Of a stretch of DNA of 64,000 nt, positions 8,980 to 31,973 are shown piece after piece (within the stretch, counting starts at the first letter, position 1; each line of letters opens with the position of its first letter). The position numbers and the translations under genes are program-made. The notes below the pieces were generated by a model. It searched no databases and was not told where the DNA came from. It saw nothing but the letters and a program-made list of their open reading frames with translations. Origin of the DNA: a virus. Lineage: Duplodnaviria; Caudoviricetes. The stretch covers positions 32,001-96,000 of the IMG/VR virus record IMGVR_UViG_3300028591_000090; one strand, 5' to 3'.

Positions 8980-9318
8980 TTATTTTTTTGCCCAATCTTC
9001 CATGAAATCAACAACGTCCTCTCTTATAAAAAGCATATCTCCGCTTCCGTCTCCCCACCAATCAGAACAATGAGAAAAGAACTCACCTATTATTTTTTTA
9101 TACATAGAACGGAACATTGCAGATATTTTTCGTCCACTAAAATGTCCTGCGTCTTTTGCCTCATTAGTGCAGTACCCATACATACCACGAGTTTCAATTT
9201 TACCATCTATAAGAAATTCTTGATCTCCATCACCCCAAGACCCGAAATTAATCGTATCTTTTAATAATTGTTTTTGCTCATCCGTCAATGTGTCTAAAAG
9301 TTGAACTAATTTTTCCAT
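8980..9318 (-). CDS. hypothetical protein
   Basis: ORF track; own promoter at ~9347. Confidence 0.7.
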   Translation of the reverse strand: MEKLVQLLDTLTDEQKQLLKDTINFGSWGDGDQEFLIDGKIETRGMYGYCTNEAKDAGHFSGRKISAMFRSMYKKIIGEFFSHCSDWWGDGSGDMLFIREDVVDFMEDWAKK

Positions 9319-14136: not shown

Positions 14137-14482
14137 TATTATTATTTTTACATATAATCAAACAAAGTTCATCATTATCTTTTATATCTTTGAAACGCAA
14201 AGATAAATCATTTTTTATAATATCCAAATTTTCAGTACTTATTTTTGAATGAGAATCCAAATCTTTATACATCACTTTATCTGTATCTATTATCTTAAAT
14301 AATCCCAACGGAACTATTTCTATTTTGTCTTTTTCTTCACAATCTGGACAATAATTCTCATAATGTAAATGAATATAATCACCAGTCTTGTAATTGTCTT
14401 TCTTATCAACAAAAACAATAAATTCTTGTCCTAAAAAGACATAACAGAAATTTCTTACATTTAATTTAGTACACCCTCGCAT
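14129..14482 (-). CDS. hypothetical protein
   Basis: ORF track. Confidence 0.55.
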   Translation of the reverse strand: MRGCTKLNVRNFCYVFLGQEFIVFVDKKDNYKTGDYIHLHYENYCPDCEEKDKIEIVPLGLFKIIDTDKVMYKDLDSHSKISTENLDIIKNDLSLRFKDIKDNDELCLIICKNNNIG

Positions 14483-15020
14483 GAATCTCTTTCATTAAAT
14501 TATTTCTAAAACGCATACATTGAACTTTAATGGTATCAACTTTTTTATCCGTCTCCAATGATATATCTTTTAATGATTTACCGTTAATGTAATACTCAAT
14601 AAAAGAATTCTTGTTTATATTATCATTTAGGTTATAAATTATATCCTCAACACGAATATGTATATCATTTGCAGACGGCTCTCTATATATCTTATCTTCT
14701 ACATCTATACTATATGTCTTAATACTTTTCTTTTGCTTTTGCAATTTAGTACAGCATACAGAATTGATTATAGTATTCAACCACGTTCTAAATACCTTCT
14801 CTTCTTTTCCTACACCCTTGAAATTCTTTACACTATACAACAACTTAATAAATACCTCTTGTGCCATATCTTCCGAATCTTCGACATTCTTTGTATAGGA
14901 ATAACATTTCCATTTAATGTATTCATTATACAATCGAAAATATTTATTAACAGTTTTATTATCTTGTTCTACCAAACCCTTATACTCTTCCTGCGTCATC
15001 TTTAATGTATTTAATCCCAT
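14466..15020 (-). CDS. ECF-type RNA polymerase sigma factor
   Basis: Region 2 EDSEDMAQEVFIKL..FRTWLNTI and region 4 HTH GKSLKDIS...VDTIK. Confidence 0.8.
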   Translation of the reverse strand: MGLNTLKMTQEEYKGLVEQDNKTVNKYFRLYNEYIKWKCYSYTKNVEDSEDMAQEVFIKLLYSVKNFKGVGKEEKVFRTWLNTIINSVCCTKLQKQKKSIKTYSIDVEDKIYREPSANDIHIRVEDIIYNLNDNINKNSFIEYYINGKSLKDISLETDKKVDTIKVQCMRFRNNLMKEIHARVY

Positions 15021-15495
15021 TTACCCAACCATACTCAAGTGCATCTTGCACAACCTTACGGAAGTCATTATCCATTTTCAAAATAATATCAGCATTGGTT
15101 GTTGTAAACTCTTTTTTCATATTATTAAGAGCGTCCATTTCTCCTAAAAGATTGTCTGCATTGTCTATTATGTTTGCAATGTGTTGTGTTTTATCACTAA
15201 ATTTTAACGATCCATTCTTACACAACTCAATTGCTTTCTCTATCATTGCAGTTTGTGTTTTCAATACGGTATCATATTGATTTTCTTTGTCAAAAAAGAT
15301 TACATTAAAAAATTTATCATACACAACAAAACCATAATTAACCCTATTCTTTATGTCTCTTTTTTCAGTTAATTTCATATATATACCCAATCGCTTTCTT
15401 AAAAAAGCAAGAATAGACGATACATTATTGTCTTTCTCATTGAAATCTGGAAATAATTCTTTTATTTCCTTAATCAAATCTTCACTTATAACCAT
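14980..15495 (-). CDS. hypothetical protein
   Basis: Start moved to MVISED, downstream of the -7 element at 15510. Confidence 0.6.
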   Translation of the reverse strand: MVISEDLIKEIKELFPDFNEKDNNVSSILAFLRKRLGIYMKLTEKRDIKNRVNYGFVVYDKFFNVIFFDKENQYDTVLKTQTAMIEKAIELCKNGSLKFSDKTQHIANIIDNADNLLGEMDALNNMKKEFTTTNADIILKMDNDFRKVVQDALEYGWVNGIKYIKDDAGRV

Positions 15496-15540
15496 ATCTT
15501 TATTTTTTTGCAAATATAAAATAAAAATATGAGAAAAACA

Positions 15541-15574
15541 AAAAAAAGGAGAAACTTTTTAAACAATTCCTCCT
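15541..15574 (-). terminator. intrinsic terminator ending the tRNA operon
   Basis: AGGAG...CTCCT stem followed by T7. Confidence 0.6.
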
Positions 15575-15670
15575 CTATCTCTTCTTGACTTATCGTCAAG
15601 TAACGCTAAACATAACGCTATCGCATCTGATTGTGATAATTTCTTATTACCAACCTGACAACGTACATTA

Positions 15671-15716
15671 ACAACAATATTTTCCAAATGTTCTTTTGGC
15701 ACGGGAAAAAGATTAT
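15671..15716. repeat. trailer arm of long-range inverted repeat (partner 21768..21813; partial partner ~19670..19702)
   Basis: tccaaatgttcttttggcacgggaaaaagattat vs reverse complement of leader tccaaaagttctttgacatacgggaaaaagattat. Confidence 0.8.
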
Positions 15717-15729
15717 TTTATGCTTTTTG

Positions 15730-15805
15730 TGTGTTAGGTTGGATTCGAACCAACGACCTTCTGCTCCACAAACAGACGTTCTAAACCAACTGAACTACTA
15801 ACACC
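15730..15805 (-). tRNA. tRNA-His (GTG)
   Basis: Cloverleaf, TCTGT-TTGTGGA-GCAGA, G-1 present. Confidence 0.9.
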
Positions 15806-15810
15806 ATGTG

Positions 15811-15884
15811 TTGTTGCGAAGGGACTCGAACCCCTAACGTCCAGAATCAAAATCTGGCATTCTAACCAGTTGAATTACGCAACA
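15811..15884 (-). tRNA. tRNA-Gln (TTG)
   Basis: CCAGA-TTTTGAT-TCTGG. Confidence 0.9.
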
Positions 15885-16033
15885 ATAAAAACGGCTTCAC
15901 GTACCGTTTTGTGGGCTTCAATTAGAATACCACGGAAGTTCATGGTGTGTGTGCACCTAACTTCTCTCACCATAAATCCACACAATTAGTGAGACCTAAA
16001 TCATATAATGCTCCAAATAAGGAGACTTCTTTG

Positions 16034-16107
16034 TGGGAACGGAGAGATTCGAACTCTCACTACATAGATTCTAAGTCTATTGCCTCTACCAATTGGGCTA
16101 CGTTCCC
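16034..16107 (-). tRNA. tRNA-Leu (TAG), short variable loop
   Basis: ATAGA-CTTAGAA-TCTAT; 5-nt variable region. Confidence 0.85.
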
Positions 16108-16166
16108 ATGTGCCCCATACGGAATCCTCACGCTGGGGCTATGATGACAAGCGTTTTTTATTTAGG

Positions 16167-16247
16167 TGCTTTGAGACAAGTTGGGACTCGAACCCAAATC
16201 CGAGGTTTTATTTTAGACCCCGTGTCTTAACCATTAGACGACAAGCA
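16167..16247 (-). ncRNA. tRNA-like RNA (intact D and T arms, oversized anticodon loop, bulged acceptor)
   Basis: GTCT/AGAC D stem, TTGGG-TTCGAGT-CCCAA, CGGGGT-CTAAAATAAA-ACCTCG. Confidence 0.55.
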
Positions 16248-16263
16248 TGAAACACATAAATTG

Positions 16264-16335
16264 TGTTCCGAAAAGGAATCGAACCTTTATTGTCTGCTTA
16301 GAAGGAAGATGTTCTATCCATTGAACTATCGGAAC
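16264..16335 (-). tRNA. tRNA-Arg (TCT)
   Basis: Loop CTTCTAA; one mismatch in anticodon stem. Confidence 0.85.
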
Positions 16336-16339
16336 TTTT

Positions 16340-16564
16340 GCACACCTAACAGCACTCCTATGGAATTACCCAATGGTCTGTTGCCTTTACTGGCTCAGGG
16401 ACTCTGGTTTGTGTGCTCTACTATAGTCCCTTTTTCGTTAAAATTTGGACGCCTGAAGATGCTTCCCTGCGTGGATACTCACGTCCTCGTTCTTACTTCG
16501 CTACTCACGCTTTTAGTCGACATATTAAACGCTTTTGCTTTTCTGACTCAGTTCATTGCTAGTG
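16340..16564 (-). ncRNA. unidentified structured RNA between tRNA-Glu and tRNA-Arg
   Basis: GC-enriched; terminal ACACTAGCA/TGTTAGGTGT, AGGGACT/AGTCCCT and GGACG/CGTCC helices. Confidence 0.45.
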
Positions 16565-16639
16565 TCGTGCATAGGGGATTTGAACCCACTAATTTCTTCC
16601 TTGAAGGGGAAGCGACTTAACCAATTCGTCTAATGCACG
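16565..16639 (-). tRNA. tRNA-Glu (TTC)
   Basis: CTTCC-CCTTCAA-GGAAG. Confidence 0.8.
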
Positions 16640-17443
16640 TTTTTTTAATTTATTATAAATCATTCCTTTACCAGCACAACTTCGTGAACAATAAAATGTT
16701 CCAGTTCTAAATTTACCATGTCTATAAAATAATTTACCACAAAAAGCACATTCATAATTATTATCATAACTATTATCATATAGTTCTTCTAAATGTTTTA
16801 CATTATATTTGTCTTTGCAATAATTTATATAAAATAACATATCATCATAATATAAAACTTTAGAATTTTCTGGTAAATGTTTTAATTTTTCTTCTGTTAT
16901 ATTTGTTTTAAAACCTTTTATTTCATATATTATACCATCTATTTCAAAATCTGGATTATAAAAATGTTTTTCTCCATCAAATTCATATTCTAATTTTTTA
17001 TCACATCTTTTTATGTTTGAATTGTTATCAAGATGATAAATAAGAAATGCAAGTTCCCAAGTAGAATCTAAAAAGAAACCTTTATAAAAACCTTTATGTC
17101 CTCTACCACTACCTTTTCTATATCCTCCATACTTAACATTTTCTTTCAACCATTTTTCTTTACATTCTTCTGAACAATATTTAGAATTTCTCTTTCTTAA
17201 ATCAAATTCAGTACTGCAATATTTACATTTTTTAATTTTTGGTATTTTGGCTTTTTCTCTTCTAATTTCGTTATTAAAAGGGACCCATTTACCACCATGC
17301 ATTAAAGTGTAACCAATTTTCTTTTTTGTTTCTTCTGAATGGTGTCGTGTATTTGCACAACTTTTAGAACAAAATCTTCCAGAACCATAATTCCCATTAT
17401 GTTCTTTTCCACAATTTTCACAAATAAAAATTTGATTTTCCAT
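16589..17443 (-). CDS. free-standing homing-endonuclease-like protein (Cys/Zn repeats plus PD-(D/E)xK domain)
   Basis: CENCGK..FCSKSC repeats, HSEETKKKI (NUMOD3-like), DSTWE..YNPDF..IYEIKG. Confidence 0.75.
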   Translation of the reverse strand: MENQIFICENCGKEHNGNYGSGRFCSKSCANTRHHSEETKKKIGYTLMHGGKWVPFNNEIRREKAKIPKIKKCKYCSTEFDLRKRNSKYCSEECKEKWLKENVKYGGYRKGSGRGHKGFYKGFFLDSTWELAFLIYHLDNNSNIKRCDKKLEYEFDGEKHFYNPDFEIDGIIYEIKGFKTNITEEKLKHLPENSKVLYYDDMLFYINYCKDKYNVKHLEELYDNSYDNNYECAFCGKLFYRHGKFRTGTFYCSRSCAGKGMIYNKLKKRALDELVKSLPLQGRN

Positions 17444-17582
17444 AATTATTTTTATCTTTTTTTATAGGTTATTGGTAGTAACCTTTATTTTATTTAGTTT
17501 TAAAAAATAGTAGTTAGATAAAACTATGGATAATTTTATCAATTGGCTACCAACCAGATGTCCTACTATTTTTATAGTTTAT

Positions 17583-17661
17583 GCTTGTGTATGATAGGCT
17601 TCGAACCATATGCCTCTCTATCTCTATAGATTGTTCTGCCATATTAAACTACAACACAAGC
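17583..17661 (-). ncRNA. tRNA-like RNA with 4-nt loop in place of the anticodon loop
   Basis: Extended acceptor GCTTGTGT/ACACAAGC, D arm, TCTAT-AGAG-ATAGA, TTCGAA T loop. Confidence 0.55.
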
Positions 17662-17783
17662 ATTTCGTTTTACTAAAAACTCTACGACTTTGCAAAACTA
17701 CTCCGTGGAAAACGATACACGTTTCATTTACTTAAACCATCCATTGAGACCGGATGCAGTCTCATTTAAGCGTGTGAATTTTG

Positions 17784-17860
17784 CGGTGACAGTAGGATTC
17801 GAACCTACGACCCAGGGATTAACAGTCCCTTGCTCTAAAAACCAACTGAGCTATGTCACC
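17784..17860 (-). tRNA. tRNA-Asn (GTT)
   Basis: AGGGA-CTGTTAA-TCCCT. Confidence 0.9.
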
Positions 17861-17864
17861 ATAA

Positions 17865-17937
17865 TATTTAAGTTTGGAATCGAACCAAAGCCTTTCTCAA
17901 TACATGGAGAAGATGCAGACCACTACACTACTTAAAC
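17865..17937 (-). ncRNA. tRNA-like RNA with 8-nt anticodon loop
   Basis: TTCTC-CATGTATT-GAGAA; acceptor and T arm intact. Confidence 0.55.
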
Positions 17938-17938
17938 G

Positions 17939-18012
17939 TGGACCAGACTGGGCTTGAACCAGTGACCTCCTGATTATGAGTCAGTTGCTCTGACCAACTG
18001 AGCTACAGGTCC
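17939..18012 (-). tRNA. tRNA-Ile2/Met (CAT), Ile2-like body
   Basis: CTGA-CTCATAA-TCAG; body resembles lysidine-type Ile2 tRNAs. Confidence 0.8.
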
Positions 18013-18165
18013 AAAAAAAGTGGTAGAAGGAATAGTTTCAAATCCATAGAAAAACATGGAAATTGTTTATAATTTAATAATTACTGGGTGAACTACTACA
18101 CCCTCTATCCCATTGTTGAAAACTTTTGAGAATACTTTTCTAATTAATAACTACCACTTAAATCT
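18013..18165 (-). ncRNA. orphan TnpB omegaRNA-like scaffold (18035..18165) plus putative guide (18013..18034)
   Basis: Close copy of 29910..30045 (tnpB 3' end and right end), diverging after GAAACTAT. Confidence 0.75.
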
Positions 18166-18281
18166 TCGCCGTGCTGACCTTACACCTATGATTGCTACTC
18201 TTACACATATTAGTTGTACACCTAAATATGTGATATGGTGCACCGTTTCACAACCACGCAGACTCGAACTGCACCTGCGAC
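18166..18281 (-). ncRNA. circularly permuted tRNA-like RNA (YrlA/Y-RNA-like topology)
   Basis: Order 5' TCGC, T arm, TGGTTG...CAATCA acceptor closed by insert, D arm, GCGA 3'. Confidence 0.55.
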
Positions 18282-18292
18282 ATGCTTTTTTG

Positions 18293-18363
18293 CTCGGTCG
18301 AAGGGACTCGAACCCTCATACGCCCCCGTCAATGGGGCTGTTCTACCGTTAAACTACAACCAA
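18293..18363 (-). ncRNA. atypical tRNA (loop ATTGACG, class I body)
   Basis: Full cloverleaf but A32/C37 loop; TGA anticodon without the Ser long arm. Confidence 0.55.
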
Positions 18364-18458
18364 GAAACACATTCTAACGCTGCAACATTATTATGTGCCA
18401 ATGGACATAAATGCTTTAATCGTTTGCAGACAATCTTTGCATTCGCCAATCCATTTAG

Positions 18459-18530
18459 AACAAGAAATGAGAATCGAACTCACATATCCAGTTTTGAAGA
18501 CTGGAGCACTAACCGTTGTGCTATTCTTGC
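18459..18530 (-). tRNA. opal (UGA-reading) suppressor tRNA, anticodon TCA, tRNA-Gly-like body
   Basis: CCAGT-CTTCAAA-ACTGG; body closely resembles tRNA-Gly at 20196; U73. Confidence 0.85.
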
Positions 18531-18539
18531 ATTTTTATG

Positions 18540-18626
18540 TGGCTCAAATCGGACTCGAACCGATACGAGCATTTCTGCCCCTGGGATTTTAAGTCCCATG
18601 CGTACTACCAATTTCGCCACTGAGCC
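18540..18626 (-). tRNA. tRNA-Leu (TAA)
   Basis: TGGGA-CTTAAAA-TCCCA, long variable arm. Confidence 0.9.
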
Positions 18627-18634
18627 AAAATTTG

Positions 18635-18751
18635 AGTCGCCAACTGGATTCGAACCAGTATCTCCAATGTGATTTAGGAAAATCTTACGTATTGTACAGA
18701 ATGAGGCTGTACCGACCTCAAATACGTTGGCACCTATTAGACGATGGCGAC
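18635..18751 (-). ncRNA. tRNA-like RNA with pseudoknotted ~40-nt insertion in the D region
   Basis: Perfect GTCGCCA/TGGCGAC acceptor and T arm; insert ACGTATT[TGAGG..GTACAG CCTCA]CTGTAC AATACGT. Confidence 0.55.
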
Positions 18752-18757
18752 AAAAAG

Positions 18758-18860
18758 TTGTGTTAGATGGATTCGAACCAACAATGTATGCTATTCTACA
18801 TGCTTATTTACATACTCCTACCACAAATGTAGGTGGGTTTACCATTTCCCCTATAACACG
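18758..18860 (-). ncRNA. class II-like tRNA with TTG anticodon and very long variable arm
   Basis: CCTAC-ATTTGTG-GTAGG; ~34-nt variable region closed by GTATG/CATAC. Confidence 0.55.
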
Positions 18861-18867
18861 AATTTTG

Positions 18868-18939
18868 TTGCGAGAGAGGGATTCGAACCCACGACCTACA
18901 GCTTATGAGGCTGCCGAGCTACCTCTGCTCTATCTCGCA
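18868..18939 (-). tRNA. tRNA-Met (CAT), initiator-like D arm
   Basis: GCAGC-CTCATAA-GCTGT; GAGC/GCTC D stem. Confidence 0.85.
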
Positions 18940-18952
18940 ATATATTTTATTG

Positions 18953-19026
18953 TGGTCGTTCTACGACTCGAACGTAGGACTTCTTCGGTATCAGCGAAGT
19001 ACTCTAACCAACTGAGTTAAACGACC
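18953..19026 (-). tRNA. tRNA-Ile (GAT)
   Basis: CTTCG-CTGATAC-CGAAG. Confidence 0.9.
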
Positions 19027-19039
19027 AAGAATAATCAAA

Positions 19040-19435
19040 ACTAAAAAGTGTGTTTAATCATTAAGTAACATTATAGTAAACACAGATTATTGTCTACATC
19101 CGTAACACGGCTTTCGTTACTAATCACTTTGCAAGCAAAGGCAACAATAATCTTTTACTTTTTTACAAACTCTTTTTCTGTTCGATGGCGAGTTTATTTA
19201 TGGTCCATTTCCGTTGCCAAGTAACATAATTCATAGCAAACAATCACGGAAACCTACGATGAGTTGTTGAGTAACAAACAAAAGTTGCTATATCAAGGAC
19301 GACATATATATAATCGGCTAAATGACCGACTTTCAGAACCTTGTTCTGCTATCCGAGATTATCTTACCTTGATTTAAGATAGATACAAATTCATTGTATC
19401 TCTTGGAGAGTTTAGGCAGTAGTTGTCTTTCTACT
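19040..19435 (-). ncRNA. large (~400 nt) unidentified structured RNA
   Basis: About ten helices, long-range AAACTCT/AGAGTTT, pseudoknot ATCAAGG/CCTTGAT, no ORF. Confidence 0.6.
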
Positions 19436-19437
19436 TG

Positions 19438-19511
19438 CGGGTAGTACGAGATTCGAACTCGTGAACTCCTCATAGACAGTGAGGAATGATAGACCGCTTC
19501 ACCAACTACCC
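19438..19511 (-). tRNA. tRNA-Asp (GTC)
   Basis: CCTCA-CTGTCTA-TGAGG. Confidence 0.88.
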
Positions 19512-19629
19512 AAATTTGAGGTTATTTTTATACGTATGGCTCGTAAACTTATTCTGTCTTTCTTATGCGTTCTGCTGTTACACATTAGTCTAAAGAAGTA
19601 ACATCTATAAGTATATTTACGATTTCCAT

Positions 19630-19729
19630 TTCACCTCAAGCATCATTTGTTTAAATGCTTACGTTTACATCTTTTTCCTTTTCCCGTATGTCAAAGAACT
19701 CGTTTGTTTTATTTAACGATGCAAATATA
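19630..19729 (-). promoter_or_regulatory. internal promoter, boxA-like element and conserved leader hairpin
   Basis: TATATTTGC (19721-29), GAGTTCTTTGACATACGGGAAAA, AGCATTTA..AAATGATGCT..AGGTGA; paralogous to 21715..21847. Confidence 0.75.
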
Positions 19730-19785
19730 CAACAATGTTTTGAAACAACCAAATAAAACAACAACTTTTTTTTATTTTTTTTTTG

Positions 19786-19871
19786 CGGAGATTGTAGGAC
19801 TTGAACCTACACGTCTTACGACTACTGACAGTTTAGCAAACTGCTCCCTTACCAATTAGGGTTAAATCTCC
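19786..19871 (-). tRNA. tRNA-Ser (GCT)
   Basis: GCAGT-TTGCTAA-ACTGT, long arm. Confidence 0.9.
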
Positions 19872-19881
19872 ATATTATATG

Positions 19882-19954
19882 TACTCGTGCAGAGACTCGA
19901 ACTCCAATCTTCAGATCCGTAGTCTGATATTCTAATCCATTGAACTACACGAGC
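19882..19954 (-). tRNA. tRNA-Arg (ACG)
   Basis: TCAGA-CTACGGA-TCTGA. Confidence 0.9.
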
Positions 19955-19959
19955 AGTTG

Positions 19960-20031
19960 AGCACTCTATTGGAGTCAAACCAATTTATACGGTTTTGCAG
20001 ACCGCCACCTAAATCGTCCGGTACAGAGTGC
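19960..20031 (-). tRNA. tRNA-Cys (GCA)
   Basis: GCGGT-CTGCAAA-ACCGT, U73. Confidence 0.82.
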
Positions 20032-20195
20032 AAAAATGTGTTGGAAAATCCTCGTGCAACACCACACGCCAACTCAACGATTTGGCTCCATCTCGTAAGA
20101 TGCTACTTTAGAAAGTTTTCCCAAAGCATTCACACAATTAGTGTGAGAGACGTTTCGATCCTACTTTTAACATGTATTATATGTAGGCTATAATG

Positions 20196-20267
20196 AGCAG
20201 ATAAAGAGAATCGAACTCTCATCTCCAGAGTGGAAGTCTGGAGCACTAACCATTGTGCTATATCTGC
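20196..20267 (-). tRNA. tRNA-Gly (TCC)
   Basis: CCAGA-CTTCCAC-TCTGG, U73. Confidence 0.9.
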
Positions 20268-20272
20268 ATAAA

Positions 20273-20512
20273 TTATCTTAATTCAATTAATTCTTCTTTT
20301 TCTATTGCTTTACGAATCCAACGCATCAAAATAATTGCTTTATCATAATGGCACATAAACGTAGCAGTTTCTCCTACATCGTGTGTGTCTGCCAAATTGA
20401 TTTCCAATTGATATTTTTTACCACTTTCTGACGTTAATTCATAAATTGCAACACCGCCTGCTTTAACGCAAACCATATCTGCATTTCCTTTAATAATATC
20501 TTTCAAATCCAT
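20273..20512 (-). CDS. small hypothetical protein inside the tRNA operon
   Basis: Start moved to MDLKDIIK (the longer call overlaps tRNA-Pro). Confidence 0.7.
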   Translation of the reverse strand: MDLKDIIKGNADMVCVKAGGVAIYELTSESGKKYQLEINLADTHDVGETATFMCHYDKAIILMRWIRKAIEKEELIELR

Positions 20513-20531
20513 AATATATGTATTATTTTTG

Positions 20532-20604
20532 TCTGGGTAGCAAGACTCGAACTTGCGACCTGATGGTCCCAAACCACCCGTTCTACCAACTGAACTATAC
20601 CCAG
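20532..20604 (-). tRNA. tRNA-Pro (TGG)
   Basis: GGTGG-TTTGGGA-CCATC. Confidence 0.9.
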
Positions 20605-20613
20605 TTTATTTAG

Positions 20614-20686
20614 TGACTCCGATGAGGTTCGAACTCATGACCCCATCCTTAAAAGGGATGTGCTCTCCCAACTGAGCTACGAAGTC
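20614..20686 (-). tRNA. tRNA-Lys (TTT)
   Basis: CATCC-CTTTTAA-GGATG. Confidence 0.92.
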
Positions 20687-20954
20687 ATGTGCTAATATCG
20701 TATGTTCTTCGTTTTGTTTGTTCTGGGCGGTTAAAAGAGAACAACAGATTTGGTAGTCTTTTCAATCTTAGCATTTTCTGAAAAGAATCGTTCCGCACCT
20801 ACGTCTAACTTTTGTACTATTCACCACGAGTTTACGATGACCTTGAGTCTGTTTACGATTACCAGTCGTTCCAGAAGTCCATCTACATAGTTACTTTGGC
20901 AAGTTTCGTCTATGCCAGCGTTTGTTTATAACCTCAACGCAATTTGGTATTTTG

Positions 20955-21029
20955 TGGAAGCGATGGGACTTGAACCCACGACTTTCTGCGTGCAAGGCAG
21001 ATGTTCTAGCCAAACTGAACTACACCCCC
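20955..21029 (-). tRNA. tRNA-Ala (TGC)
   Basis: TCTGC-CTTGCAC-GCAGA; G3.U70. Confidence 0.92.
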
Positions 21030-21039
21030 ATAAAAGAAT

Positions 21040-21250
21040 CTTGACGTATTTCTTATGAGAATTCCTTCAACGGATTATTTAGTGCCATTAAATAACCATT
21101 CCTTTGATTTTGTCTGTTATGCATAAATGAACTTATGCACTCTAACCATATGTCATATACGTTAGAATGTTTTCCCGACAAATCGTGAAGGTTAAGGCTC
21201 AAAGTACTAAGTTTACCTTTTCTTCACGACTGCTATGATATAGCGTCAGG
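21040..21250 (-). ncRNA. unidentified multi-hairpin RNA (~210 nt)
   Basis: Ends pair (CCTGACG/CGTCAAG); TCGTGAAG/CTTCACGA, TGCATAA/TTATGCA and other internal hairpins. Confidence 0.5.
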
Positions 21251-21261
21251 CTGCAATTGCG

Positions 21262-21346
21262 TGGGAGAGGAGGGATTCGAACCCCCTGTGTTTCTATGTG
21301 CTGGTTTTACAGACCAGTGCTACTCCACCATCGTAGCCGCTCTCCC
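21262..21346 (-). tRNA. tRNA-Tyr (GTA)
   Basis: CTGGT-CTGTAAA-ACCAG. Confidence 0.9.
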
Positions 21347-21352
21347 AAAATG

Positions 21353-21439
21353 CGGAGAGGGAGGGATTTGAACCCCCGGTGCTTTTTAGGGCACGACGGT
21401 TTTCAAGACCGTTGCAATAAGCCTCTCTGCCACCTCTCC
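21353..21439 (-). tRNA. tRNA-Ser (TGA)
   Basis: ACGGT-CTTGAAA-ACCGT, long arm. Confidence 0.92.
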
Positions 21440-21452
21440 GAGTAAAATTTTG

Positions 21453-21526
21453 TTGGCTTAGTGAGACTCGAACTCACACTTTATAGGTTTTGAATCTATT
21501 TCCTCTACCGATTGGGATACAAGCCA
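21453..21526 (-). tRNA. tRNA-Leu (CAA), short variable loop
   Basis: Loop TTCAAAA; body similar to Leu(TAG) at 16034. Confidence 0.8.
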
Positions 21527-21533
21527 ATGTTGT

Positions 21534-21587
21534 CTATCTAGTGTGATTCGAACACACGTGCTCATGTTTCTAATGCAGGCCTAGATA
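21534..21587 (-). ncRNA. mini-tRNA (acceptor plus T arm, no D arm)
   Basis: TATCTAG/CTAGATA stem stacked on GTGTG-TTCGAAT-CACAC. Confidence 0.5.
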
Positions 21588-21601
21588 ATGATAAAATTAA
21601 G

Positions 21602-21674
21602 AGCTCCCACACGGATTTGAACCGCAGTCCCCTGATTACAAGTCAGGTATAATAACCAACTATACGATAGGAGC
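21602..21674 (-). tRNA. tRNA-Thr (TGT)
   Basis: CCTGA-CTTGTAA-TCAGG. Confidence 0.9.
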
Positions 21675-21714
21675 GTAAGAAGGTTTTTGTTGTTACACAG
21701 GTGGATAAACCACT

Positions 21715-21847
21715 TCACCTTTAGCATCATTTAATAAATGCTTCTGCGTTTGTTTGAATTTTGCTCTATAATCTTTTTCCCGTATGTCAAAGAACTTTTG
21801 GATTATTTGTTGTCGGTTTATCCATTCCGATTTTTTTTGCAAATATA
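21715..21847 (-). promoter_or_regulatory. tRNA-operon promoter, boxA-like element and leader (leader arm of the inverted repeat)
   Basis: TATATTTGC 21839-47, AGTTCTTTGACATACGGGAAAAAG, leader hairpin shared with 19630. Confidence 0.75.
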
Positions 21848-24947: not shown

Positions 24948-25520
24948 AAAAAAAAGGGTTTGTGAAACCCTACCACACTATGTTACCATAGATAAACAAC
25001 GCCTTTCACTAGTATACTTGGCATCAATCGTAATATGAGTTTATATCTCATGTTCTCTAACTAGTATAACGAGGGTTTCCCTTAGCCGCAGCACCCACGA
25101 TGATATAGTTGTTTGTTGTGGTCTTGACTGCTTTACCATATTGAAATTCTTGCAAGTAAGTTTGTTTTGAATATATGTAGGATTTCATACCTACAACTTC
25201 CTACAGCCTAGTAGTCCTCTGATTCTTGACGGTAATATATTCTCAAACCAATTTCAACTTAGGTATCTCCTTTTCAGTCTACACGATTATAAGAATCTTT
25301 TATCCAGTGCAATGGGCTGTCTTCTTCCATTTTATTGACAGCATCTTCTCATTTTCGCTCGGAATAATCCTTACACATTATTAGTTAGTGTTACAAATGT
25401 AATAGATTCACCATACAATGCCTACGGCTTACTCTTATGCCTTTACCAAGGCAGCTATTACATTAAGGATTTCCCGAATTTAGGAGATTCTACATAGGGA
25501 TTTCTCGCCTATGCACACAA
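24948..25520 (-). ncRNA. group I ribozyme-like RNA without apparent exons
   Basis: P3 TCTCCT/AGGAGA, P4 TTCGGGAA/TTCCGAG, P7 T-A-GACTG/CAGTC-A, P9-type CTATG-GTAA-CATAG; upstream boxA-like element; ends in terminator GGGTTT/AAACCC-T7. Confidence 0.7.
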
Positions 25521-25560
25521 AATTATTTCAAAGAACTCTTTAATAAATTTTGGAGGTTAT

Positions 25561-25857
25561 TTATCCTTCAAATTCCTCTTTCATTTTGTGAATATTGTAT
25601 TCTTCATCATCCTCCATAAATTTTTTAATATTATCAAATTTTACTTTCAATCCATCTTCACCTAACATATCTCTAAATGATAGCAAATCTCTTTTTGCAC
25701 GGTCTCTTTCTTCTGGATAATCACGGTCATCTGCCATATAGGAACAGAATACTTTCATGTTGTAACTATGAATTTCTTTGTAAATAAGTTCTGTTACTTC
25801 GAGATTTAATTCAAATTTCTTTGAAAGTTTTTCAATGTATGCTTCATATCTTTTCAT
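25561..25857 (-). CDS. hypothetical protein co-transcribed with the group I-like RNA
   Basis: ORF track; promoter within the repeat at 25884. Confidence 0.65.
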   Translation of the reverse strand: MKRYEAYIEKLSKKFELNLEVTELIYKEIHSYNMKVFCSYMADDRDYPEERDRAKRDLLSFRDMLGEDGLKVKFDNIKKFMEDDEEYNIHKMKEEFEG

Positions 25858-29909: not shown

Positions 29910-31264
29910 GTTTCAAAATCCATAGCAAAATATGGAAATTGTTTATAATTTAACAATTACTGGGTGAACTACAACACCCTCTATCCCATCGTTGAAAACT
30001 TTTGGGAATGCTTTTCTCATGATGTTATAGCTTCCGTTTACATCTGCGTTTATCTTGTTCCCATTTTCTGAAATAAACAAGCCACGGCGAACACGCTTGC
30101 CTTTATAAACATCATGCTTTTTAATTTCTTCCAAATCAAGGAAACTGCATTTAGATGTGTAGTTTTCCTCGTTTGTAATTACTTTTATCCCCACCTTTTC
30201 GCATTTGTATGAAATCATTTCAACAAATCTACTGTGGGGTATTTGTATGAAGTTCTGATTGTTTTTTGAACCGATGTTACAGTCTTTCTTCCATCCGTCG
30301 TTCTTTCCAATAACCAGAACAGATATATTCTTGTCTTTTAAATCATTGACTATTCTCTTACTTGCACGATGCAAGTAGTTGTCTACTTTATTATTCCTTT
30401 TATTTGTGAGCCTTCTTGTCCTATGCGAATGCTTTTTCTTATTGACTTTTTCTAATTTAGACTTATGTTTCGCAAGTTCCTTATTATAGAACTGGTTCAT
30501 CGATTTCAAAGGTTTTCCGTTTATTATAACTGGCTGTTCTCCATACGAATATGTTACCGTAGCAAGGTTATTAACGCCTAAATCAATTGAGGCAATTCTT
30601 TTATTGAATTTTACTTTTTCTACATCATCTATTGTATAGATTACCTCAATTACATATTGCTCGATTCTTGGAACAATCCTTACACAATTTATTGATTTAA
30701 AGTCGTTTATTTTTGTATAAAATTCTATGTTTACTTTTGATAGTTTAATTTTATGGGACTTATCAAATACTTTTTTTGAGATAGTCTGATTGTTGAATAC
30801 TGTAACATATCTTCCATCTTCTTTGTGTAAGAATTTTGGAAACTTGATGTTTTTATTATCAACATTATTTGAACGAATCATTCCGAAAAACGAGTTGCAA
30901 GTCGCATGAACAGCACGAAGTGTCGCCTGAGCAACCTTCTGCGGAAGTCGCTTGAAGCATTCATCGTTCTTCATATATAAATACGAATCATTCAATACAT
31001 TATATGTTTTGCTTTCTTCATATTCCTTTCGTATCAGATATAATGTCCTGTTATATATGTTTTTTGAAGAAAAACACAGCGAATCACATTCCTTATATAA
31101 GGAATGATTTCTATTAATAATATGTCTTTCTACCAATTGCATTTCTGTATAATAATACAGTTTCTTTTTATTATTTATTTGCAAAAATAATTGATTTTTT
31201 TTGTCAAATAAATTGTATTGTTTCCATAAATTTTCTATAATGTTATATAAAAATAATACAGACA
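29910..31264 (-). mobile_element. non-autonomous IS200/IS605-type tnpB element (right end +/-3 nt)
   Basis: Inserted after TTTAT; removal restores the C-terminus ...IPASLLYKMI* of the interrupted gene; subterminal hairpin and TTTGAAAC end. Confidence 0.7.
29943..31142 (-). CDS. tnpB: TnpB RNA-guided endonuclease (399 aa from MQLVERH), rearranged RuvC-II type
   Basis: SIDLGVNN, VIG in place of the usual E with alternative E in NEENYTS, INADVNG. Confidence 0.88.
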   Translation of the reverse strand: MQLVERHIINRNHSLYKECDSLCFSSKNIYNRTLYLIRKEYEESKTYNVLNDSYLYMKNDECFKRLPQKVAQATLRAVHATCNSFFGMIRSNNVDNKNIKFPKFLHKEDGRYVTVFNNQTISKKVFDKSHKIKLSKVNIEFYTKINDFKSINCVRIVPRIEQYVIEVIYTIDDVEKVKFNKRIASIDLGVNNLATVTYSYGEQPVIINGKPLKSMNQFYNKELAKHKSKLEKVNKKKHSHRTRRLTNKRNNKVDNYLHRASKRIVNDLKDKNISVLVIGKNDGWKKDCNIGSKNNQNFIQIPHSRFVEMISYKCEKVGIKVITNEENYTSKCSFLDLEEIKKHDVYKGKRVRRGLFISENGNKINADVNGSYNIMRKAFPKVFNDGIEGVVVHPVIVKL

Positions 31265-31973
31265 ATAAACTTGCTGGAATATTTTCATAAGTGAAATAAC
31301 AATTTTTAATATTCATTGCTGTATCTTTATATATCTTAATATTATTTAATTTATTTAAATTTATTTTAAAAACAACATATTGTTTAAGTCCAAGACTATC
31401 TGCCAATTCTGATAATTGTTCATCTATTGTACTAAAATCACTTGTTGAATATAAAAAAATCTTTTCTGGATAATATCTATATTCTGCACTTCGGCAACGT
31501 AATCCTTTTTTCATAATAAAGTTATAGTTTCTTTTATTTGTTATATGGAAACAAATTCCTTTATTTTCATTAAAGATTATATCCGTTGCATCTGTTGTAT
31601 AAACTGGTTCTATATATAATGTATCATCATCATTATAAGTAATATAATAATTAAAAAAATCTAATATATTTTTAAAATGTTCATTTAACAGTATTTCTAT
31701 TTTCCTATCTTTATTTTTACATTTAATTTCAAGGTTTGTTTTATCATCACTTGTTATCTTATTATATTCAACATCATCTGCAACATATTGTTTTAATTTT
31801 GCAATAAGAGAGTCTATATTATGAGATTGTAACATTTCACCTATAAAATCATATCTCCAATCTTCATTAAATTTTTCTTCAATCAATGAAAAGTCATTAC
31901 CGAAGAAATCTTTCAAAAATTTCTTTTTCTCGCAACATTTACAATATTCGTCAAACAGTAATACTTTTTTCAT
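29943..31973 (-). CDS. in-frame fusion ORF: ADP-ribosyltransferase-fold-like phage protein plus TnpB
   Basis: N-terminal part has FHIT.....I.KKGL..IFL..VFKI..YFTYENIP pattern; read-through across the IS left end has no stop. Confidence 0.5.
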   Translation of the reverse strand: MKKVLLFDEYCKCCEKKKFLKDFFGNDFSLIEEKFNEDWRYDFIGEMLQSHNIDSLIAKLKQYVADDVEYNKITSDDKTNLEIKCKNKDRKIEILLNEHFKNILDFFNYYITYNDDDTLYIEPVYTTDATDIIFNENKGICFHITNKRNYNFIMKKGLRCRSAEYRYYPEKIFLYSTSDFSTIDEQLSELADSLGLKQYVVFKINLNKLNNIKIYKDTAMNIKNCYFTYENIPASLLSVLFLYNIIENLWKQYNLFDKKNQLFLQINNKKKLYYYTEMQLVERHIINRNHSLYKECDSLCFSSKNIYNRTLYLIRKEYEESKTYNVLNDSYLYMKNDECFKRLPQKVAQATLRAVHATCNSFFGMIRSNNVDNKNIKFPKFLHKEDGRYVTVFNNQTISKKVFDKSHKIKLSKVNIEFYTKINDFKSINCVRIVPRIEQYVIEVIYTIDDVEKVKFNKRIASIDLGVNNLATVTYSYGEQPVIINGKPLKSMNQFYNKELAKHKSKLEKVNKKKHSHRTRRLTNKRNNKVDNYLHRASKRIVNDLKDKNISVLVIGKNDGWKKDCNIGSKNNQNFIQIPHSRFVEMISYKCEKVGIKVITNEENYTSKCSFLDLEEIKKHDVYKGKRVRRGLFISENGNKINADVNGSYNIMRKAFPKVFNDGIEGVVVHPVIVKL

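Follow-up and report, generated by a model that had tools for sequence, protein, structure and literature searches.

Judged by its sequence, the tRNA array of a large uncultured Bacteroidota phage begins with the pre-23S signal of the host phylum and ends with a 46-base stretch able to pair with this beginning. We propose, with moderate confidence, that the array forms an untranslated operon modelled on the host pre-23S frame, in which boxA antitermination is combined with a leader-trailer stalk. The phage probably borrows the rRNA transcription machinery of its host, and perhaps also the processing machinery. Large phages carry long tRNA arrays, and we know of no explanation for how kilobases of untranslated, hairpin-rich RNA escape Rho-dependent or premature termination. 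A concrete and testable answer would be a host-type boxA, placed both at the head of and within the tRNA arrays of Bacteroidota phages; if true, phage tRNA operons would join the targets of the Nus/rrn antitermination complex. A literature search found no paper on the use of boxA or Nus factors at phage tRNA arrays.

The stretch of DNA analysed (64 kb, hereafter the window) contains a tRNA block of ~6 kb, in which ARAGORN identified 24 genes on the minus strand and Rfam detects 23. Two promoters of the TAnnTTTG type (21847 and 19729, minus strand) serve the array, with 10 tRNA genes downstream of P1 and 14 downstream of P2, and the spacers between the tRNAs are long and non-coding. The features of the unit, listed in the direction of transcription, are the following:

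21838..21847, minus strand: promoter P1, with -7 box TATATTTG(CA) of the Bacteroidota type; start site predicted
21813..21830, minus strand: small hairpin with a 4-bp stem at the 5' end of leader 1, seen in the sequence; weak
21766..21814, minus strand: putative leader arm of the long-range helix, containing boxA 1 (RNAduplex, cofold, BLAST)
21775..21796, minus strand: boxA 1 with its extension, the 12 nt GTTCTTTGACAT followed by ACGGGAAAA; exact repeat
21710..21743, minus strand: hairpin module common to both leaders, copy 1 (leader-leader alignment)
15729..21674, minus strand: array of 24 tRNA genes (ARAGORN, Rfam, PHROGs)
20273-20572: small ORF inside the tRNA array
19720..19729, minus strand: promoter P2, with the same -7 box as P1; start site predicted
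19679..19700, minus strand: boxA 2, a 22-mer identical to that of boxA 1; exact repeat
19626..19660, minus strand: hairpin module common to both leaders, copy 2 (leader-leader alignment)
16589-17443: HNH endonuclease ORF inside the tRNA array (PHROGs)
15670..15716, minus strand: putative trailer arm, able to pair with the GUUCUUU of boxA and with the leader 1 sequence flanking boxA on either side
15545..15576, minus strand: terminator-like hairpin with a T run, 3' of the trailer arm
15509..15518, minus strand: promoter of the next gene (ORF 14980-15495), which marks the end of the tRNA unit

The 22-mer AGTTCTTTGACATACGGGAAAA is present in exactly two copies in the window, both on the minus strand (21775-21796 and 19679-19700), against an expected number of 0.01. 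Each copy occupies a leader position on the sense strand, 3' of a predicted promoter, and on the tRNA strand the distance from the TATATTTG -7 box to the 22-mer is 45 nt for boxA 1 and 23 nt for boxA 2. Both leaders also share a module consisting of a 6-bp hairpin and AGGTGAA-TGG, and hence the arrangement reported in the preliminary description, two promoters each followed by a motif and a common hairpin, was confirmed. The small hairpin at 21813..21830 occupies a boxB-like position and has no counterpart in leader 2.

Elsewhere on the window's minus strand the 10-mer of P1 recurs at 15 places, many of which are just 5' of an ATG. There are ~15-20 promoters of this kind in the window, and boxA is confined to the two that serve the tRNAs. 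As an internal control, all TA.ATTTG boxes of the window were inspected, and the promoters of protein genes lack boxA. A third copy, of the 16S type, is located at 25500-25536, between a stop codon and a non-coding RNA, around which (~25.5 kb) no helix was found. Within the window, boxA is therefore linked to untranslated, Rho-exposed units rather than to ordinary mRNAs. The start of the phage 22-mer has the sequence of an rrn-type boxA, and is a candidate signal for NusB-NusE binding and antitermination.

The preliminary description had called for a comparison with Bacteroidota rrn operons, and this comparison bore out the resemblance. A search for 16S genes in three genomes holding matches to the motif pattern found none, and rrn operons were therefore taken from a sample of the phylum to which a Bacteroidota reference genome belongs (genomes G005, G009, G015, G030, G038, G041, G046 and G057). 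The phage 12-mer GTTCTTTGACAT is identical at 12 of 12 positions to the boxA in the 16S-23S spacer of eight rrn loci of the sampled phylum, where it is placed 3' of tRNA-Ile and tRNA-Ala. In several of these loci the spacer boxA is extended by ATATTGG(G/A)AAA, which is close to the phage ACGGGAAAA, and the 16S leaders of the sampled operons carry GTTCTTTGA(A/T/C)A. We also searched for the partner of the boxA region, using as query 57 nt that run from 12 nt before boxA to 45 nt after it. In seven of ten rrn operons the best partner is located 2.9-3.9 kb downstream, just 3' of the 23S gene (z -3.8 to -7.3). The sequence of these predicted helices varies between genomes but the complementarity is retained, pairing begins within boxA, and in four sampled genomes an exact inverted copy of the boxA 12-mer is present 3.2 kb away. 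By these sequence comparisons, boxA in the sampled phylum is part of a pre-23S leader-trailer helix (seven of ten operons), the trailer being predicted to pair with boxA itself, which bears on how the antitermination complex passes on the leader once the 23S RNA has been made.

These data also bear on the possibility that the 22-mer functions as DNA rather than as an RNA signal, i.e., as an operator or promoter element for a phage sigma-like protein, which we consider very unlikely. A protein with sigma-70 region 2 is encoded just downstream of the array (14466-15020), and TTGACA is present in the motif. However, the motif does not keep a constant distance from the -7 box (45, 23 and ~4 nt in different phages) and is not followed by a second promoter element, and cellular genomes that have no phage sigma-like protein carry the identical 12-mer as their rrn spacer boxA.

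The region past the last tRNA had been described as the near reverse complement of the first leader and, in part, of the second, and both observations held. The trailer (15670-15716) and leader 1 (21766-21814) can form 40 bp, arranged as blocks of 8+6+7+17+2 and comprising just two G-U pairs, with a perfect 16-nt core (15701-15716 / 21768-21783). RNAduplex gave -46.0 kcal/mol for this duplex, i.e., a z of about -7.7 relative to all 70-nt windows of the minus strand (-15.5 +/- 3.9; next best -36.4), and -30.3 for the partial pairing of the trailer with leader 2. The trailer also has strong partners at 9085 and 38730, both of which lie in coding sequence and were rejected as chance matches. In a BLAST comparison the arms are the top inverted repeat of the window (48 columns, 83%, 4 gaps), and the significance of the repeat is modest when judged solely from this DNA alignment (E 0.002).

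The trailer starts 13 nt past tRNA-His, the last tRNA, and ~95 nt ahead of the terminator-like hairpin (15545-15576). Because of this position between the last tRNA and the terminator, both arms are inside the predicted P1 transcript, in which they provide long-range complementarity flanking mature RNAs. No plus-strand TAnnTTTG promoter reading into the trailer (15670..15716) was found. The arms enclose tRNAs and no rRNA; the phage helix may therefore at best function like a pre-rRNA stalk, and we do not class the array as an rRNA operon.

Inverted repeats flanking a 6-kb cassette might also be the ends of a mobile or invertible tRNA island acting on DNA, as had been suggested, and a TnpB-type gene is located 8 kb away (29943-31973). 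We regard such an island as extremely unlikely. Analyses with PHROGs and Pfam assigned neighbouring ORFs to a helicase, the sigma-like protein, a dUTPase, an HNH endonuclease and a methyltransferase, but no invertase, integrase or DDE transposase was present among the ORFs scanned up to 8 kb on each side. Moreover, there is no direct repeat or target-site duplication outside the arms, whose flanks differ, the longest perfect match between the arms is 16 bp, and one arm is a conserved RNA signal common to unrelated phages and host rrn operons. Finally, inversion would place antisense tRNAs behind P1 and cut this promoter off from its tRNAs.

Because boxA and a boxA-pairing trailer are shared with the host, the phage layout appears to copy the host pre-23S frame, with tRNAs replacing the 23S RNA. 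Following what has been described for boxA, Nus factors and leader-trailer helices (PMC10250234, PMC5725501, PMC3177189), we envisage that host RNA polymerase would initiate at P1 and P2, which by sequence are two ordinary phage promoters. The boxA in the nascent leader would then bind host NusB-NusE(S10), which would nucleate an rrn-type antitermination complex with NusA, NusG and SuhB, enabling the polymerase to traverse the 6-kb untranslated unit, with its weak internal hairpins, and to escape both Rho-dependent and premature termination. With less certainty, the trailer, emerging 13 nt past the last tRNA, could pair with leader 1, possibly still held at the polymerase by the Nus complex, to give a stalk of ~40 bp resembling the pre-23S leader-trailer helix. 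Host RNase III might cut this stalk, so that the terminator would be removed and exonucleases could reach the 3' end of the last tRNA; alternatively, the stalk might protect the ends of the precursor. We infer from the arms that the helix could form in the phage and then be cut or be protective. Genes for NusB, NusG and RNase III were not found in the phage record, and every factor would therefore be the host's.

Further considerations speak against the helix. The arms are separated by 24 tRNAs and RNase P would probably detach the leader long before the trailer is made, so that pairing requires the leader fragment to survive and remain tethered. In addition, binding of NusB-NusE and pairing of GUUCUUU are mutually exclusive. 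If real, the phage helix would be a natural experiment on the role of such helices around a non-ribosomal RNA.

It is possible, although we think it rather doubtful, that the boxA leaders are functional but that the trailer has no role as RNA, being instead the decaying remnant of a partial, inverted leader 1 copy left behind by a rearrangement in an array prone to recombination. The promoter-leader module is demonstrably duplicated within this array, which also contains an HNH endonuclease gene, other phage arrays hold two or three boxA copies, the arms are just 83% identical with four gaps, and the helix is absent from 23 other boxA-led arrays. Yet, the trailer is sharply bounded, is positioned on the sense strand precisely between the last tRNA and the terminator, and contains neither the promoter nor the hairpin module. 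Its divergence is greatest at the boxA core, whereas the flanks specific for leader 1 are matched on both sides (16/16 on one of them), a pattern consistent with selection for pairing and not for a second boxA. The same design is also present in the host pre-23S, where it is clearly under selection.

The helix might instead be an off-switch: by sequestering the GUUCUUU of boxA, the trailer would strip NusB-NusE from the tethered leader, and the weak terminator (15545-15576) would then halt the polymerase before the next gene. NusB-NusE contacts 8 nt of boxA, and it is the part matching these 8 nt with which the trailer would pair (PMC3177189); furthermore, the terminator lies ~95 nt beyond the trailer and the next gene has its own promoter. 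We nevertheless find this improbable. The scheme is wholly inferred, and what is mainly described for rrn-type complexes is resistance to Rho, not to intrinsic terminators. Moreover, the 23S trailers of the host pair with boxA even though 5S follows, and most boxA-led arrays have no trailer. A broader version also seems unlikely to us, in which the trailer would capture the Nus-tethered leader, thereby ending antitermination before the terminator and creating an RNase III site that frees the 3' end, the pre-23S frame being a portable cassette for long non-coding transcripts in Bacteroidota phages. If true, this would be a self-limiting antitermination unit, which has not been described for any operon.

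Regarding the proposed pre-23S-like operon, the closest known counterpart is the Bacteroidota rrn spacer boxA with its pre-23S helix. Both have the identical 12-nt boxA and a similar extension, the boxA is within or abuts the 5' strand of the helix, the 3' strand lies a few nt past the enclosed RNA, and the span is 3-6 kb and untranslated. In contrast to the host frame, that of the phage surrounds 24 tRNAs with their spacers and two ORFs in place of 23S RNA, its helix extends also upstream of boxA, it has two boxA promoters, its transcript begins at a phage promoter and not within an rrn transcript, and the enclosed RNA would be cut many times by tRNA-processing enzymes. The E. coli rrn leader (boxB-boxA-boxC) with the pre-16S leader-trailer helix of 25-40 bp likewise combines a boxA 3' of the promoter with a long untranslated operon and a long helix (PMC10250234, PMC4807359, PMC6614797). 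However, the phage has no conserved boxB or boxC, and its boxA is inside the helix, whereas in E. coli boxA is outside and boxC inside. With nutL/nutR of lambda it would share the use of a boxA RNA in a phage and of host Nus factors for processive antitermination, but no N-like protein, conserved boxB, phage NusG or NusB was found in the record, the motif belongs to the rrn type of the host, and it is a tRNA operon, not an mRNA, that would be targeted.

We then considered how general these features are. The host-type 17-mer is present in at least 115 IMG/VR viral contigs, for the most part at tRNA arrays, and a tRNA gene on the same strand follows within 200 nt in 34 of the 80 loci read. The phage-type motif is located between promoter and first tRNA in seven other IMG/VR loci, and some other phage tRNA arrays hold two or three boxA copies. 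No clear second case of a comparable helix was found in 23 other boxA-led phage arrays (4 full arrays and 19 with the 17-mer). Locus L324 was the only rank-1 case with a convincing duplex among these 19, but a terminator precedes its apparent trailer, which is probably associated with the following promoter. Thus, boxA at phage tRNA arrays is general and the leader-trailer helix is not, and the helix is not needed for the use of boxA. Of the rrn mimicry originally suggested, the boxA identity and the predicted pre-23S-like pairing are supported, whereas the helix lacks parallels in those 23 arrays.

Short-query BLAST against GenBank phages gave no match, and the leader hairpin module, used as a pattern, gave 76 chance matches, none with boxA. 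Helicase queries and ORF171 alignments yielded no useful close relatives in IMG/VR and JGI metagenomes; in a helicase alignment of 80 loci none had a tRNA array beside the helicase, the best of them (51% identity) having only a chance match. Close relatives were detected only in Logan/ENA (ORF171 88% and 87%, helicase 95%). The exact 21-mer was found in metagenomes in one relative of locus L003 and in one mRNA leader, and had no match in 185,579 species genomes. A looser pattern gave 23 matches in species genomes, which is near chance, and only a Chryseobacterium tRNA operon was informative: in this case (L039), boxA follows a TAnnTTTG promoter and precedes a tRNA-Thr-Tyr-Gly-Thr operon. Together with suhB, whose boxA represses rather than promotes expression (PMC5725501), L039 is an example of boxA outside rRNA operons, and in L039 it is likewise placed before tRNA genes, although both are cellular genes without a trailer complement.

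The IMG/VR record that holds the window is 183,630 bp long and has an estimated completeness of 69%. ARAGORN detected 24 tRNA genes on the - strand between positions 15729 and 21674 (the Rfam count is 23), and the gaps in this array are occupied by long non-coding spacers, an ORF encoding an HNH endonuclease and one small ORF. The 10-mer TATATTTGCA, a -7 box of the Bacteroidota type, is present three times in the array region, at 21847, 19729 and 15518. The boxes at 21847 and 19729 belong to the predicted promoters P1 and P2, which are followed by 10 and 14 tRNA genes, respectively. Each of these two boxes precedes an identical 22-mer, AGTTCTTTGACATACGGGAAAA, of which 0.01 copies are expected, and a second module with a hairpin; the promoter-leader unit is therefore duplicated. 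The features of the region are as follows.

21775-21796 and 19679-19700, - strand: two copies of the 22-mer, an exact repeat
21710-21743 and 19626-19660, - strand: second module common to both leaders, a 6-bp hairpin with a purine-rich tail
15888-15910, - strand: terminator-like hairpin with a T run, within the array, 4 nt before tRNA-Gln
15545-15576, - strand: terminator-like hairpin with a T run, downstream of the trailer
15518, - strand: -7 box serving the next protein gene
25500-25536, - strand: third boxA, of the 16S-leader type, GTTCTTTGAAAT followed by the element GTGTGCATAGGCGAG

Some other properties of the array and its surroundings were recorded. T-arm-like GGTTCGAATCC motifs with acceptor-like ends are present at 18764-18790, 18628-18656, 17586-17608 and 16179-16195 (- strand), in spacers for which ARAGORN called no tRNA; they could represent additional tRNA-like elements or tRNA genes that are interrupted. 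The tRNA with anticodon TCA at 18458-18530 (- strand), labelled SeC by ARAGORN, is probably a UGA reader, and a four-base anticodon (tgta) was called for the tRNA at 17865-17937 (- strand). A gene for a sigma-70 region 2 protein (14466-15020, - strand) is located two genes downstream of the array, and beyond it lies one for an RNA ligase family protein (1419-2765, - strand).

The trailer, located between the last tRNA gene (tRNA-His) and the hairpin at 15545-15576, starts 13 nt past tRNA-His, and its sequence (15670-15716) is complementary to positions 21766-21814 in leader 1. The predicted helix comprises 40 bp (blocks of 8, 6, 7, 17 and 2, including two G-U pairs), with a duplex energy of -46.0 kcal/mol, against -15.5 +/- 3.9 for all 70-nt windows of the - strand; the next-best value (-36.4) lies within coding sequence. 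When the entire leader and the entire trailer were co-folded, the helix was retained and 28 kcal/mol was gained with respect to the separate folds. In BLAST, the pair is the top-scoring inverted repeat of the 64-kb window, yet its E value is only 0.002. Since the hairpin at 15545-15576 comes after the trailer, both arms are inside the predicted P1 transcript. The arrangement of leaders, shared motif and complementary region after the last tRNA that was reported in the preliminary description is real and lies where it was placed.

The match of leader 2 to the trailer is limited to boxA and an A-rich stretch (-30.3). The trailer follows leader-1-specific sequence on both sides of boxA, and diverges most in the boxA core. 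It might instead be an inverted remnant of the duplicated leader that has no function, a plausible but less likely reading. The preliminary description also considered that the arms are terminal inverted repeats delimiting a tRNA island able to move or invert. Such a DNA-level role is unlikely: no recombinase was found among the ORFs scanned within 8 kb on either side, a target duplication is absent, and the sequence of one arm is that of a conserved RNA signal.

BoxA (the RNA signal bound by NusB-NusE(S10)), the Nus factors and leader-trailer helices are well known from rRNA operons and lambda nut sites. BoxA also regulates suhB (PMC5725501). Our literature searches turned up no publication that describes boxA or leader-trailer helices for phage tRNA operons. 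For comparison with host rrn operons, we sampled 61 genomes from the phylum to which a Bacteroidota reference genome belongs and took their 16S loci. The sampled 16S leaders contain GTTCTTTGA(A/T/C)A at -80 to -220, an element that borders on the 16S leader-trailer helix or extends into it. At eight loci, GTTCTTTGACAT, which matches nucleotides 1-12 of the phage motif exactly, is present in the 16S-23S spacer after tRNA-Ile and tRNA-Ala, and several spacers carry the extension ATATTGG(G/A)AAA, which is near the phage ACGGGAAAA. For ten operons the 23S region was taken, with 57 nt spanning boxA (starting 12 nt before and ending 45 nt after it) as the query. The best partner was located just past 23S, 2.9-3.9 kb downstream, in seven of the ten (z -3.8 to -7.3). 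This pairing begins within boxA, and its sequences vary between genomes while the complementarity stays; in four genomes the 12-mer recurs exactly, in inverted orientation, 3.2 kb away from its spacer copy. Thus, a boxA-complementary trailer is the normal pre-23S design in this phylum. Judged by sequence, the phage array reproduces this design, with tRNAs replacing 23S; the likeness to an rRNA operon drawn in the preliminary description is partly supported.

In the mechanism that we propose, host polymerase would start at P1 and P2, and boxA with NusB-S10 and other Nus factors would turn it into a termination-resistant complex that traverses 6 kb of untranslated RNA, including the hairpin before tRNA-Gln. 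We consider such read-through of the array from both promoters likely. Genes for NusG, NusB or RNase III were not found in the phage record, so host factors would be used. It is unlikely that the 22-mer is a DNA operator for a phage sigma-like protein: its distance from the promoter varies, and cellular rrn operons share the motif. Following boxA-driven read-through, the trailer would pair with leader 1 into a pre-23S-like stalk for RNase III cutting or end protection, a step that we put forward more tentatively, as possible but somewhat short of probable. The chief objection is that RNase P would be expected to separate the leader from the rest of the transcript well before synthesis of the trailer; pairing would then need the leader fragment to be tethered to the polymerase. 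Such tethering has been proposed for rRNA leaders (PMC4807359), and a role of leader-trailer helices has also been described (PMC10250234). In a variant, trailer pairing would strip NusB-S10 off boxA and so restore termination at 15545-15576.

A comparable partner is absent in four other complete boxA-led arrays. Among 19 further ones, the post-array region is the best partner in only two, which is about chance, and the better of these two was rejected as a leader-trailer case, as it sits behind a terminator. Close relatives of the phage were found in Logan and ENA assemblies only (88%, 87% and 79% identity for ORF171, and 95% for the helicase), with none in IMG/VR or JGI. The other boxA-led arrays surveyed do not support the helix as a general feature. 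It is striking in this genome but unproven. Support for boxA is good, and this signal is widespread.

A search of the window for all TA.ATTTG boxes gave about 15-20 near-identical promoters for protein genes on the - strand, in which TATATTTGCA is followed by 20-30 nt and then ATG. BoxA follows only the two promoters of the tRNA blocks; similar intergenic promoters lead straight to protein genes. The third boxA is located directly past the stop codon of ORF 25561-25857, ahead of a non-coding RNA (~24951-25500). Host 16S leaders (L048-L050) likewise have the GTGTGCATAGGCGAG element in this position, and a search for a leader-trailer partner of this boxA found none. Placement of boxA at tRNA promoters and a non-coding RNA is what one would expect if it protected untranslated transcripts from Rho.

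At seven other IMG/VR loci, the phage-type motif likewise follows a TAnnTTTG promoter and precedes the first tRNA, and it is often repeated ~3.4 kb deeper into the array. At least 115 viral contigs of IMG/VR carry the host-type 17-mer GTTCTTTGACATATTGG; a same-strand tRNA is located within 200 nt downstream at 34 of the 80 loci read, and within 15 nt at 19. At loci L292-L371 it is often found 8-15 nt ahead of a tRNA or between tRNAs. These sequences suggest that boxA is a common punctuation mark of tRNA arrays in Bacteroidota phages. A cellular tRNA operon with the leader signal of the phage is present in a Chryseobacterium MAG (L039, 2962-3618), where a TAnnTTTG promoter is followed by boxA with a GGGAAAA extension and by tRNA-Thr-Tyr-Gly-Thr.

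In Filimonas zeae (G001; L087, L194-L202), GTTCTTTGACAT occurs 11 times, against once for the reversed control. Most copies are outside any rRNA gene seen, several are extended as in the host type (for example, ATATTGGAAA), and three are preceded by a common 40-nt element; extended boxA seems to be widely used outside rRNA in this genome. At two IMG/VR loci without tRNAs (L009 and L010), a boxA leader precedes, by 1-3 kb, several repeat units that are complementary to the sequence immediately after boxA.
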